Source: Candidatus Pacearchaeota archaeon CG10_big_fil_rev_8_21_14_0_10_31_59
GTDB taxonomy: Archaea > Nanobdellota > Nanobdellia > Pacearchaeales > CG1-02-31-27
DNA length: 37,264 nucleotides
Assembly (NCBI GenBank): GCA_002763115.1
Contig: PFCW01000001.1
Span: forward strand, 44,491 to 81,754
Direction: 5' to 3'
The notes under the pieces were generated by a model that worked only from the letters and a program-made list of their open reading frames with translations, was not told where the DNA came from and did no database searches. Position 1 is the first letter of the stretch, and each line of letters opens with the position of its first letter. This document shows, in pieces, positions 5,988 through 33,477 of this stretch. Made by a program: the position numbers and the translations under genes.

Positions 5988-6068
5988 TGACTATCCTTTC
6001 TTTAGAAAAGAAAGGCTCGTCGAATCCAAAGAAACTTATTTAGTCTTTAGATTGACATAATTTTATTA

Positions 6069-6214
6069 TGGGCCTGAGGGGATTTGGACCCCCGACACCC
6101 GCATTTCACTTACGAATCCAAAAACTAAAATAGTCTTTTGGAACTCCTAGAACCTTTTCTTCTAGAAAAGGTTGTAGTAAGAGTGCGGTGCTCTACCAAC
6201 TGAGCTACAAGCCC
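6069..6214 (-). tRNA. tRNA-Lys(CUU) with a 73-nt intron at 37/38
   Basis: Minus strand: GGGCTTG/CAGGCCC acceptor, GCTC/GAGC D stem, CCGCA/TGCGG anticodon stem, loop CTCTTA|intron|A, GGGGG/CCCCT T stem. No encoded CCA. Confidence 0.85.
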
Positions 6215-10139: not shown

Positions 10140-10258
10140 GGGCCCGTAGCTCAGTTGGTTTAGAGCGCCTCCCTTGCAAGGAGGAGGCCCCGTGTTCGAG
10201 AAAATTTTTGCTCTATCTCTTCTAGTGAGTAAAAATTTCGAAAGTCACGGCGGGTCCA
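10140..10258 (+). tRNA. tRNA-Ala(UGC) with a 44-nt intron at 59/60 (T-loop)
   Basis: GGGCCCG/CGGGTCC acceptor, GCTC/GAGC D stem, CCTCC/GGAGG anticodon stem, loop CTTGCAA. The T stem CCGTG/CACGG is separated by 51 nt instead of 7. A perfect BHB forms at the insertion. Confidence 0.9.
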
Positions 10259-10259
10259 T

Positions 10260-10286
10260 TTAAACTTCTTTTGAAAAGAAGTTTAA
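10260..10286 (+). repeat. TTAAACTT...AAGTTTAA hairpin directly 3' of tRNA-Ala
   Basis: TTAAACTTCTTTTGAAAAGAAGTTTAA starts 2 nt after the discriminator base. Confidence 0.7.
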
Positions 10287-10435
10287 TCAAGAAACCTGGT
10301 TTAAACCTAGGTTAACGATATGCGTTGAAAAACGTCGTGACATTATATTCATCAATTCAATAGATGAAATTAACAAAGATGAAGCCGGTAAATTTTATTT
10401 ATCGTCGGATTTGTCGAGGATAATAATCCAATGAG

Positions 10436-13285: not shown

Positions 13286-13312
13286 TTAAACTTTTTTCGA
13301 AAAAAAGTTTAA
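13286..13312 (+). repeat. TTAAACTT...AAGTTTAA hairpin 3' of 23S
   Basis: TTAAACTTTTTTCGAAAAAAAGTTTAA followed by ACAAAAA, the same flank as after tRNA-His. Confidence 0.7.
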
Positions 13313-13353
13313 ACAAAAAACCTAAACTTTTAATCGGAAATTTTCTATCGAGA

Positions 13354-25863: not shown

Positions 25864-25888
25864 TTAAACTTTTTCCAAAAAAGTTTAA
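25864..25888 (+). repeat. TTAAACTT...AAGTTTAA hairpin directly 3' of tRNA-His
   Basis: TTAAACTTTTTCCAAAAAAGTTTAA starts 2 nt after C73. Its 3' arm also resembles the BRE/TATA consensus upstream of hisS. Confidence 0.7.
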
Positions 25889-25936
25889 ACAAAAAGCGTG
25901 GGCTTTTACTAAGAAAAGAAAAAATCGGAGGAAAAA

Positions 25937-31877: not shown

Positions 31878-32552
31878 ATGGTAAAAGCATTAATATTTGA
31901 CTCGAGTTCGATAATCAGTCTGACTTTGAATGATTTATTATTTATTTTAAAACCACTAAAGGAAATTTATAAGGGGGAATTTTTTATTACATCACAAATT
32001 AAAAGAGAATTAATAACAATCCCATCAAATATCAAAAGATTTGAACTTGAGGTTTTGATGATTAAAAAATTAATTGAGGAAGGCATAATCAAAGTTTATA
32101 ATTCAGATATAAATGAATTAAACAAAGAAGTCCAGTCAATAATGAAAATTGTTAATAATACATTCAAAGCCAAGGGAGAGTTTATCAAAATAATTCATGA
32201 AGGAGAGACTTCAATCATTGCTCTTAGAAGAATATTAAATAAAAAAAATTATGAGGTCAATATCATCGTTGATGAGAGAGTAACTCGGTTTATATGCGAA
32301 AATTCCTCAAATTTGCAGGAAATTCTAGAACATAAACTGCATACACCCATAAAAAAGATAAATAATGTATTGACAGAAGAAAAATGCACAGTATTGCGCT
32401 CTTCCGAACTTGCATTAATCGCACTGGAAAAAGGAATAATAAATTTACCAGGCAATAAAAAGGAAGTTGCTGATGCTTTGCTCTATGGTTTGAAATATCA
32501 GGGTTGTGCTATAACAAGGGAAGATATTGAGAAGGCAAAAAAAATGTTTTAG
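31878..32552 (+). CDS. PIN-like domain protein, hypothetical
   Basis: Acidic residues in PIN-like order: LIFDSSSIISL, HEGETSIIAL, IIVDERVTR. The assignment is tentative. Confidence 0.5.
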   Translation: MVKALIFDSSSIISLTLNDLLFILKPLKEIYKGEFFITSQIKRELITIPSNIKRFELEVLMIKKLIEEGIIKVYNSDINELNKEVQSIMKIVNNTFKAKGEFIKIIHEGETSIIALRRILNKKNYEVNIIVDERVTRFICENSSNLQEILEHKLHTPIKKINNVLTEEKCTVLRSSELALIALEKGIINLPGNKKEVADALLYGLKYQGCAITREDIEKAKKMF

Positions 32553-32587
32553 AATACAAATGAAAAGGTATGTTCTAAAATAGTCCA

Positions 32588-32602
32588 AATAAGTTTTTAA
32601 AG
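32588..32602 (+). promoter_or_regulatory. TATA-like promoter for tRNA-Trp (AATAAGTTTTTAAAG)
   Basis: Lies about 25 nt upstream of the tRNA 5' end. Confidence 0.45.
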
Positions 32603-32625
32603 TTCTGATTTTTTAGTTTAAGTGA

Positions 32626-32887
32626 GGGGCCATAGTTTCAATGGCTAAAACAGCCGGCTCCAGAGCAAATCCCTTCTTAGGAAGAAGGTCTTTGCATGTC
32701 CCAAGAACTACTTTAAGTAGTTATTGAGGTGTTGAGGAGATACCGGCAGTTGGGGGTTCGAGAGAAACTTTTTCAGAAAAGTTTCATCAAACCAAGAAAA
32801 TCCAAGGGATTTTCTGGTCCTTGAAATTCGAAAGAATTTCTTTGGAAGCGTGGATGGAGAAGCTTCACGAAAATCCCTCTGGCCCCA
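32626..32887 (+). tRNA. tRNA-Trp(CCA) with two introns (78 nt at 37/38, 111 nt at 59/60)
   Basis: GGGGCCA/TGGCCCC acceptor, GTTT/AAAC D stem, GCCGG/CCGGC anticodon stem, loop CTCCAG|intron|A, GGGGG/CCCTC T stem, T-loop TTCGAG|intron|T. Confidence 0.85.
32790..32848 (+). repeat. Structured spacer module, copy C (inside the tRNA-Trp T-loop intron)
   Basis: AACCAAGAAAATCCAAGGGATTTTCTGGTCCTTGAAATTCGAAAGAATTTCTTTGGAAG. It has the same P1 and linker as copies A and B, with the two hairpins in swapped order. Confidence 0.75.
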
Positions 32888-32934
32888 TCGAGCACTTTGA
32901 AAACATTTTTAAATCAGTTTCTCTTTAATTTTAT

Positions 32935-33477
32935 ATGGTTAAAAAAGTAAAAGAGGTTGTAGAGACTATAACTGAAACTCATAAGACTCCTTCTGGGCAT
33001 ACAAAAATAAAAACAACAAAAAAAATTATAAAGCCGAAAAAAGCTCCAGCTTTAAGCGATAAAAGAAAAGGAAACATTCCACCGACAATTCAGGCATTGA
33101 TTACAACAAACGAAAAAATTGAAAAGATGAATGACATCTCTTTATCCTTGCAAAAAGTTATGCTGTCTTTGATAAAAAAAACAAATGATTTGAATGAAAA
33201 AATTGATTCTTTGCTTGACTTGTATATTGAAGCTGCAGAAAGTTTTTCCGGGAAAAAAGTGGAAGAAATAAAACCAGAAGTAAATGTAAAAGAGAGGAGA
33301 ACTATGGCAGCCAGTGGAGACAAGCTTGATGAGTTGATAGAACAAAATAAGATAATTGCAAAGGGTTTATTGTTGCTTGAGAAGTATGTAAAAGAACAGC
33401 TGCAGGAAAAAGAGAAGCATGTTATTGAGAGAACAACAACAGAAGAGGTAAAGCCTTTACCAGAATTCAACTTTTAA
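32935..33477 (+). CDS. Hypothetical coiled-coil protein
   Basis: Lys/Glu-rich heptad-like sequence. Its stop lies 2 nt before the next start. Confidence 0.55.
   Translation: MVKKVKEVVETITETHKTPSGHTKIKTTKKIIKPKKAPALSDKRKGNIPPTIQALITTNEKIEKMNDISLSLQKVMLSLIKKTNDLNEKIDSLLDLYIEAAESFSGKKVEEIKPEVNVKERRTMAASGDKLDELIEQNKIIAKGLLLLEKYVKEQLQEKEKHVIERTTTEEVKPLPEFNF

Follow-up and report, generated by a model that had tools for sequence, protein, structure and literature searches.

The gene for tRNA-Trp occupies positions 32626-32887 of the window (the whole stretch of DNA that was analyzed, 37,264 nt) and consists of three exons and two introns, all on the forward strand. The introns (78 + 111 nt) make up 72% of its 262 nt, where the original prediction had put them at about 70 percent. 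Exon 1 (32626..32663) covers tRNA positions 1-37, which are the 5' strand of the acceptor stem, the D arm, the 5' strand of the anticodon stem and the anticodon CCA. Intron 1 (32664..32741, 78 nt) lies at the canonical position 37/38, and its interior is predicted to fold into two hairpins. Exon 2 (32742..32762) covers positions 38-59, with the 3' strand of the anticodon stem, a 4-nt variable loop, the 5' strand of the T stem and the T loop up to G59. The T loop is interrupted at position 59/60 by intron 2 (32763-32873, 111 nt). This intron is composite. Its backbone has a 5' part (32763..32791), made up of a palindromic T5 hairpin module (32764-32785) and an A-rich linker, and a 3' part (32846..32873) with the 3' strand of a closing helix (32855-32866), an unpaired A (32867), CGAA (32868-71) and the first two bases of the 3' bulge. 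Nested between them is a dyad-symmetric 54-nt double-hairpin repeat (32792..32845). Exon 3 (32874..32887) covers positions 60-73 (T60, the 3' strands of the T stem and the acceptor stem, and A73); the terminal CCA is not encoded. A promoter-like BRE/TATA element (32587..32602, same strand) was read from the sequence, with a T/A-rich core ~26-28 nt upstream of the tRNA 5' end. It matches a motif of the AAC/G-TTTTT-AAA type, which is present at -38 to -24 of most tRNA genes in the genome, and is the putative promoter of the tRNA-Trp gene.

The host is a DPANN archaeon of the Pacearchaeota/Woesearchaeota type. Its genome (636 kb, ~0.64 Mb; 31% GC) is assembled into 16 contigs and is 89% complete, and the tRNA-Trp gene is located within an 82-kb contig, among conserved neighbors. 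The joined exons (38 + 21 + 14 nt) give 73 nt, which ARAGORN calls as tRNA-Trp(cca) with a full cloverleaf (acceptor stem 7 bp, D stem 4 bp, anticodon stem 5 bp, T stem 5 bp). All stems are perfectly paired except for one G-U in the T stem. The discriminator base is A73 and the first pair is G1-C72, both being identity elements of archaeal tRNA-Trp. The proposal of a tRNA-Trp(CCA) gene with introns at 37/38 and 59/60, whose exons assemble into 73 nt, is borne out in all coordinates, helices and bulges. The unspliced gene at 32626-32887 is called neither by ARAGORN nor by Rfam, even at E<=10; at this threshold, the Rfam search of 32500-33000 returned only chance matches to unrelated families. 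Another intact tRNA-Trp gene, whose presence alongside a lack of spliced tRNA-Trp would have spoken against the original prediction, was not found in the 89%-complete assembly by BLAST with the joined tRNA. A genome-wide scan for CCA anticodon loops, permitting any intron length, yielded only noise.

The gene was compared by BLAST with 40 genomes from the same order. Exon 1 was matched in 10 of them, the matches always ending at base 38-41, and nine loci were read. Eight of these nine tRNA-Trp genes are uninterrupted (72-73 nt) and colinear with exons 1 + 2 + 3. In the ninth (relative G035), the gene is interrupted once, by a 36-nt intron at 37/38 whose 3' junction (...GGAGAT/A) is the same. 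Identity to the relatives is 90-95% for exon 1 and 84-95% for the exons overall, and the joined tRNA is identical to the nine genes at 61-69 of 73 positions, which places the gene far beyond chance. With regard to synteny, the upstream ORF is conserved in one relative (G005; 43% over 212 aa), and the downstream ORFs are weakly conserved at the loci of four others. Because it matches its orthologs and has no second copy in the assembly, the tRNA-Trp gene is considered to be a real and orthologous gene that appears to be indispensable. None of the nine orthologous genes that were read has the 59/60 intron, which was thus probably gained in this lineage.

Both introns are bounded by a 4-bp helix between two 3-nt bulges, with the splice sites following the second base of each bulge. 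For intron 1, the central helix CTCC/GGAG (32658-61/32736-39) and the bulges AGA (32662-64) and ATA (32740-42) adjoin the anticodon stem. For intron 2, the central helix TTCG/CGAA (32757-60/32868-71) and the bulges AGA (32761-63) and AAT (32872-74) adjoin the T stem. The motif of intron 1 is present in the unconstrained minimum free energy (MFE) fold. For intron 2, analyzed in the context of the T arm, the fold with the motif is less stable by 1.7 kcal/mol than the MFE fold, which favors a local hairpin. When the whole precursor is forced into the cloverleaf plus both motifs, it reaches -92.2 kcal/mol, compared to an MFE of -97.0 kcal/mol. Overall, the motif-bearing folds come to within 2-5 kcal/mol of the MFE. 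The inner helix, located on the intron side of the 5' bulge, has a relaxed, imperfect form in both introns, as judged from the predicted folds. In intron 1, it consists of 3 bp preceded by a G.A mismatch or, alternatively, is replaced by a local hairpin that abuts the 5' bulge. In intron 2, the closing helix (32764-32775/32855-32866) has 11 bp (3 + 8 bp around one A.C mismatch), and one extra unpaired A (32867) opposite the 5' bulge offsets this long-range helix.

Bases 32764-32775 serve both the T5 hairpin and the 5' strand of the motif-closing helix. The long-range helix is genuine, because the paralogous introns in tRNA-Gly and tRNA-Leu (see below) have kept it, with three double compensatory changes among the Trp, Gly and Leu introns. 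It comprises 12 and 10 bp in the Gly and Leu introns, respectively, and is part of their MFE folds or at most 0.7 kcal/mol away from them. The original prediction had described intron 2 as modular. This holds for the 5' hairpin and the 54-nt repeat, but not for the third proposed module, a CGTG...CACG hairpin. That stretch (32849-32869) has two bases in common with the central helix, and the hairpin is not kept in the related introns; judging from the folds, the stretch more likely forms the 3' strand of the motif-closing helix than a separate hairpin. From these motifs, the tRNA-Trp precursor is predicted to be spliced at both introns.

In Euryarchaeota (Haloferax and others), the tRNA-Trp intron encodes a box C/D guide RNA. 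It carries C (RUGAUGA) and D (CUGA) boxes, and its guides are complementary to positions 34 and 39. Intron 1 is likewise long, located at 37/38 and predicted to be removed by the endonuclease. It has, however, no D box, no proper C box and no Rfam C/D match, and its family comprises introns from tRNA-Leu and the initiator tRNA-Met. That C/D boxes of the euryarchaeal kind are missing had been remarked upon originally, and we agree: CTGA does not occur in either intron, the only resemblance to a C box in the two introns is one weak 7-mer with a mismatch, and no snoRNA or sRNA family was matched by Rfam at E<=10 over 32500-33000.

The genome codes for the enzymes that splicing would require. The tRNA-splicing endonuclease EndA (176 aa, C12:27556-28083) has both Pfam domains (PF01974 at 8e-28) and aligns end to end, devoid of insertions, with the alpha4 enzyme from M. 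jannaschii (1A79). According to our reading of this alignment, the sequence around the catalytic Y, H and K is conserved. As the alignment with 1A79 shows no insertion, the "L3 loop" reported from DPANN EndAs was not located. The nearest relatives of the protein are from MAGs titled Candidatus Pacearchaeota, Woesearchaeota and Nanoarchaeota. A second EndA subunit was not found by tblastn or Pfam in the 89%-complete genome. An RtcB ligase is encoded at C4:18197-19489 (1.6e-168). Typical alpha4 enzymes are reported to need a strict motif (PMC3239211). In DPANN lineages with an alpha4-type EndA, there is a marked rise in disrupted tRNA genes (PMC5829648), and the genome analyzed here, with its plain alpha4-type EndA and many disrupted tRNA genes, fits this pattern.

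A survey of the genome for further 59/60 introns, as had been proposed, was made by scanning for interrupted T loops and returned tRNA-Ala(TGC) and tRNA-Gly(TCC), both with the splice context TTCGAG/intron/T; the family of intron 2 is also represented at 59/60 in two copies of tRNA-Leu. The gene for tRNA-Gly(TCC) (C12:182125-182294; positions 86-255 of locus L071) has the same two-intron layout as tRNA-Trp, with 40 nt at 37/38 (C12:182162-182201) and 58 nt at 59/60, and is not detected by ARAGORN or Rfam. When the 54-nt repeat (32792-32845) is taken out of intron 2, a 57-nt backbone is left that can be aligned over its full length with the 59/60 intron of tRNA-Gly(TCC) (58 nt; MAFFT and local alignment). 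The alignment score is 56, compared to a maximum of 28 among 2000 shuffles. The first 38 nt of the backbone also align with the whole 37/38 intron of tRNA-Gly (score 50, shuffle maximum 28), and both alignments continue unbroken across the insertion point of the 54-nt repeat. The two tRNA-Leu copies are partial and near-identical (C12:90511-90579 and C10:21378-21446, minus strand). A short run of N masks the middle of both genes, so that their anticodons are unreadable. Intron 1 has relatives of its own. Over its first ~50 nt, it is homologous to the tRNA-Leu(TAA) intron (C12:90115-90367; score 37 versus a maximum of 28 in 2000 shuffles). There is weaker similarity to the ~80-nt intron of the initiator tRNA-Met (C15:2580-2734; AGCGGG... 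acceptor, anticodon CAT), which is assigned to the same family. On the basis of these similarities, both introns of the tRNA-Trp gene are attributed to intragenomic intron families.

The intron-2 family extends beyond this genome. In a relative from another family (G003), tRNA-Leu(CAA) has a related 47-nt intron at 59/60 (locus L086, G003:C1:19900-20400, minus strand), and tRNA-Arg(TCG) has a related intron at 37/38. The same tRNA-Leu(CAA) gene has ~11 extra bases directly after the anticodon, which may be a mini-intron. A metagenome contig (L161) carries a 90-nt 59/60 intron that has the same architecture and ends as intron 2 but a different interior. It is the only convincing case among 80 loci that were tested from >120 matches to a degenerate T-loop/hairpin pattern. 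The junction between exon 2 and intron 2 had no exact match in the metagenome scan. Within the genome, a BLAST match of the intron-2 hairpin (C12:91727-91759) is located inside a coding sequence and was dismissed as a chance match.

The original prediction had suggested that introns spread between genes, based on an insertion site shared with tRNA-Ala and on a shared module. The spacer tRNA-Ala(TGC) (10140..10258, forward strand; spliced form called as tRNA-Ala(tgc)) does have a 44-nt 59/60 intron (10201-10244) of the strict helix-bulge-helix-bulge-helix form, and the claimed identity of the splice context (TTCGAG/intron/T) is correct. As a relative of intron 2, however, it was rejected, its alignment score being at shuffle level and only the splice context being common to both. 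The shared module is a genome-wide repeat of ~18 copies. Being scattered across the genome and in relatives, it is uninformative on intron homology. Intron spread is thus retained, but on account of tRNA-Gly and tRNA-Leu rather than tRNA-Ala.

This repeat, represented by the nested 54 nt at 32792-32845, is present in about 18 copies in the 636-kb genome, and at least six related genomes contain matches to it. A fold with two hairpins is predicted for it in the MFE structure as well as under the motif constraint. The homologous introns of tRNA-Gly and tRNA-Leu lack it at exactly its insertion point and so provide an empty site. This point lies within a run of A, making a target-site duplication ambiguous. 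On grounds of parsimony, the simplest reading is that the repeat would have inserted into an existing intron loop and left the motif undisturbed, as opposed to having been deleted from the Gly and Leu introns. The repeat is probably mobile. It resembles bacterial REP/BIME-type repeats and MITEs in that it is short, dyad-symmetric, multi-copy and mostly intergenic, with filled and empty sites. It differs from them in being nested in a tRNA intron, in its archaeal host and in having no clear target-site duplication.

Taking these observations together, we consider it probable (about 0.8) that the sole tRNA-Trp gene found is the working gene, that its two introns are spliced by the endonuclease and derive from intragenomic families, and that intron 2 was gained and then enlarged by the repeat. 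One 262-nt precursor would be transcribed from the BRE/TATA element ~26 nt upstream. Each pair of intron-exon boundaries would fold into a bulge-helix-bulge motif that stacks on the anticodon stem or the T stem. The single 176-aa alpha4-type endonuclease would cut after the second base of each bulge, RtcB would join the three exons to the 73-nt tRNA, and CCA would be added later. Both introns would be copies from families whose members have reached unrelated tRNA genes of the genome. The T-loop intron would have been gained in this lineage from a family already resident in tRNA-Leu and tRNA-Gly and would then have grown from 57 to 111 nt, when the mobile 54-nt palindromic repeat inserted into its dispensable interior.

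It is improbable that the modules of intron 2 instead constitute a functional RNA, be it a scaffold for processing or chaperoning, or a small stable (possibly circular) RNA freed by splicing. Excised archaeal introns do circularize (PMC7714728). The apical parts of the double hairpin vary between copies, yet they remain complementary. Several copies are located within ~35 nt of stable-RNA genes (after 16S rRNA, after tRNA-Val and before tRNA-Gly(TCC), where the double-hairpin copy ends 3 nt before the 5' end of the gene), which is suggestive of an enrichment there. Most of the ~18 copies, however, are not beside RNA genes, and the repeat reads alike on both strands, as would be the case for a palindrome that acts at the DNA level. 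In the Trp copy, the second stem is partly degenerate, and the sister introns in tRNA-Gly and tRNA-Leu, which lack the 54-nt block, still have a fold competent for splicing. A common processing scaffold, which had been offered as an alternative to intron spread, is therefore not upheld, the module being a precise insertion that is missing from the sister introns.

The 5' module of intron 2 has a different distribution. The palindrome that opens intron 2 also opens both introns of tRNA-Gly, and the 5' part of the T-loop introns is homologous to palindromes in the trailers of stable-RNA genes. In the window, T-rich palindromes with an A-rich tail of the AAWCAAAA type (25864-25916, 13286-13340 and 10260-10297) start 1-3 nt after tRNA-His, 23S rRNA and tRNA-Ala, respectively. 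Palindromes of the same type follow tRNA-Ala in a relative (G009) and are found ~10 nt upstream of several start codons. One arm of the palindrome resembles the promoter motif upstream of the tRNA genes. We read the 5' module of the T-loop introns as a probable palindrome of the terminator/promoter type.

If so, the gene might be expressed in pieces: the T5 palindrome would end a transcript of exons 1 and 2 and promote a short transcript of exon 3, and the two RNAs would then be held together by the 12-nt closing helix and spliced in trans. The occurrence of such palindromes directly after tRNA-His, tRNA-Ala, 23S rRNA and the relative's tRNA-Ala, where a terminator is expected, would agree with this, as would the likeness of one arm to the promoter motif. 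In intron 2 of tRNA-Gly, the spacing (counted manually) would place the start of the transcript just upstream of the motif-closing strand. In the 37/38 intron of tRNA-Gly, however, this spacing would leave hardly any leader. A genome with 31% GC such as this contains T5 runs in abundance, and no precedent was found for a 14-nt exon as a separate transcript. With exons that are contiguous and in order, read-through followed by cis-splicing is simplest, and we regard split expression as very unlikely.

Interrupted tRNA genes are common in this genome. ARAGORN finds 31 tRNA genes and Rfam 28. Among the about 36 that were detected, at least 17 are interrupted, and at least five have 59/60 introns, the motifs of some being relaxed. 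Several introns are put in the wrong place by ARAGORN, which thereby assigns wrong anticodons, so that tRNA-Lys(CTT) is reported as Ser(tga) and tRNA-Gln(CTG) as Pyl(cta). Introns may conceal the several isoacceptors that escaped detection (Phe, Ile, elongator Met, Glu-TTC and others). It is hardly credible that the tRNA-Trp gene is a decaying pseudogene or an assembly artefact and that tryptophan is decoded by a gene in the missing 11% of the genome: the assembly is indeed incomplete and in 16 contigs, and neither ARAGORN nor the Rfam tRNA model detects the gene, but the stems of the joined tRNA are intact apart from the G-U, its exons are close to those of the relatives, both introns keep the exact 3-4-3 geometry, the locus is embedded in a long contig with conserved neighbors, and nearly half of the detected tRNA genes are interrupted in the same style.

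Among the closest parallels are the multi-intron tRNAs of Thermoproteales, other Crenarchaeota and ARMAN-2, which have non-canonical bulge-helix-bulge introns. As in the tRNA-Trp gene, these have the 3-4-3 motif and more than one intron, position 59/60 is recurrent, and they are hidden from standard finders (PMC3239211, PMC4090602). In ARMAN-2, introns are located in pre-tRNA-Cys (59/60) and pre-tRNA-Pro (53/54 and 59/60), and 59/60 introns are cut in vitro (PMC3239211). The 59/60 intron of ARMAN-2 has 13 nt, whereas that of tRNA-Trp has 111 nt with a nested repeat. The organisms mentioned have (alpha-beta)2 or epsilon2 endonucleases with specificity loops, whereas only a plain alpha4-type enzyme was found here. 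In Thermoproteales, similar introns in unrelated tRNAs were read as the result of intron transposition (PMC4090602, citing Fujishima 2010). [quoted passage not shown] The differences are that our case concerns DPANN archaea with genomes of about 0.6 Mb, that the 5' module is shared with palindromes after stable-RNA genes, and that a second repeat has invaded one copy.

Multi-intron tRNAs, 59/60 introns (including those from DPANN archaea) and paralogous intron families have thus already been published, and the gene, though a clear case of archaeal tRNA intron spread, has precedents. What is new is that both introns of one gene stem from intragenomic families, that the 59/60 intron is a recent gain and that a repeat is nested in it. 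With the 59/60 intron missing in nine orthologs and paralogous in Gly and Leu, this is a clean, datable gain, and the intron later offered a safe landing site to a second, probably mobile repeat. About half of the tRNA genes of this organism are interrupted, several of which, including the only tRNA-Trp gene found, are invisible to ARAGORN and Rfam. The tRNA sets given by automated pipelines would therefore be incomplete. That the organism appears to have only a plain alpha4-type endonuclease adds weight to the hint in PMC5829648 that, in DPANN archaea, the subunit type does not limit intron position or motif strictness.

A more far-reaching idea is that the tRNA introns of this DPANN lineage are actively spreading DNA elements, built from T-rich palindromes that end, and possibly start, transcription units, and that the 59/60 intron moved from tRNA-Leu/tRNA-Gly into tRNA-Trp within a lineage of genus level that has only a plain alpha4-type endonuclease. 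We hold this to be possible, with the odds clearly against it in this complete form. If it were true, the mechanism by which archaea gain tRNA introns could be studied in this genome as a tractable natural system, and introns would be linked to trailer and leader sequences, as split-tRNA models predict.

Apart from the T-loop introns, most of the canonical 37/38 introns of the genome have a pyrimidine-rich hairpin with a TAGA-type loop in common. It is found in two tRNA-Ser genes and in those for tRNA-Thr(GGT), tRNA-Val(GAC), tRNA-Lys(CTT), tRNA-Leu(TAA), initiator tRNA-Met, tRNA-Pro(CGG) and tRNA-Ser(CGA), as well as in intron 1 of tRNA-Trp. Some of these 37/38 introns are almost identical across different amino-acid families. 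In the window, the hairpin occurs in the tRNA-Lys(CTT) gene (6069-6214, minus strand) and as a free copy at 5995-6014 (plus strand). Further copies outside of tRNA genes are located at C13:1726 and C2:10367-10413.
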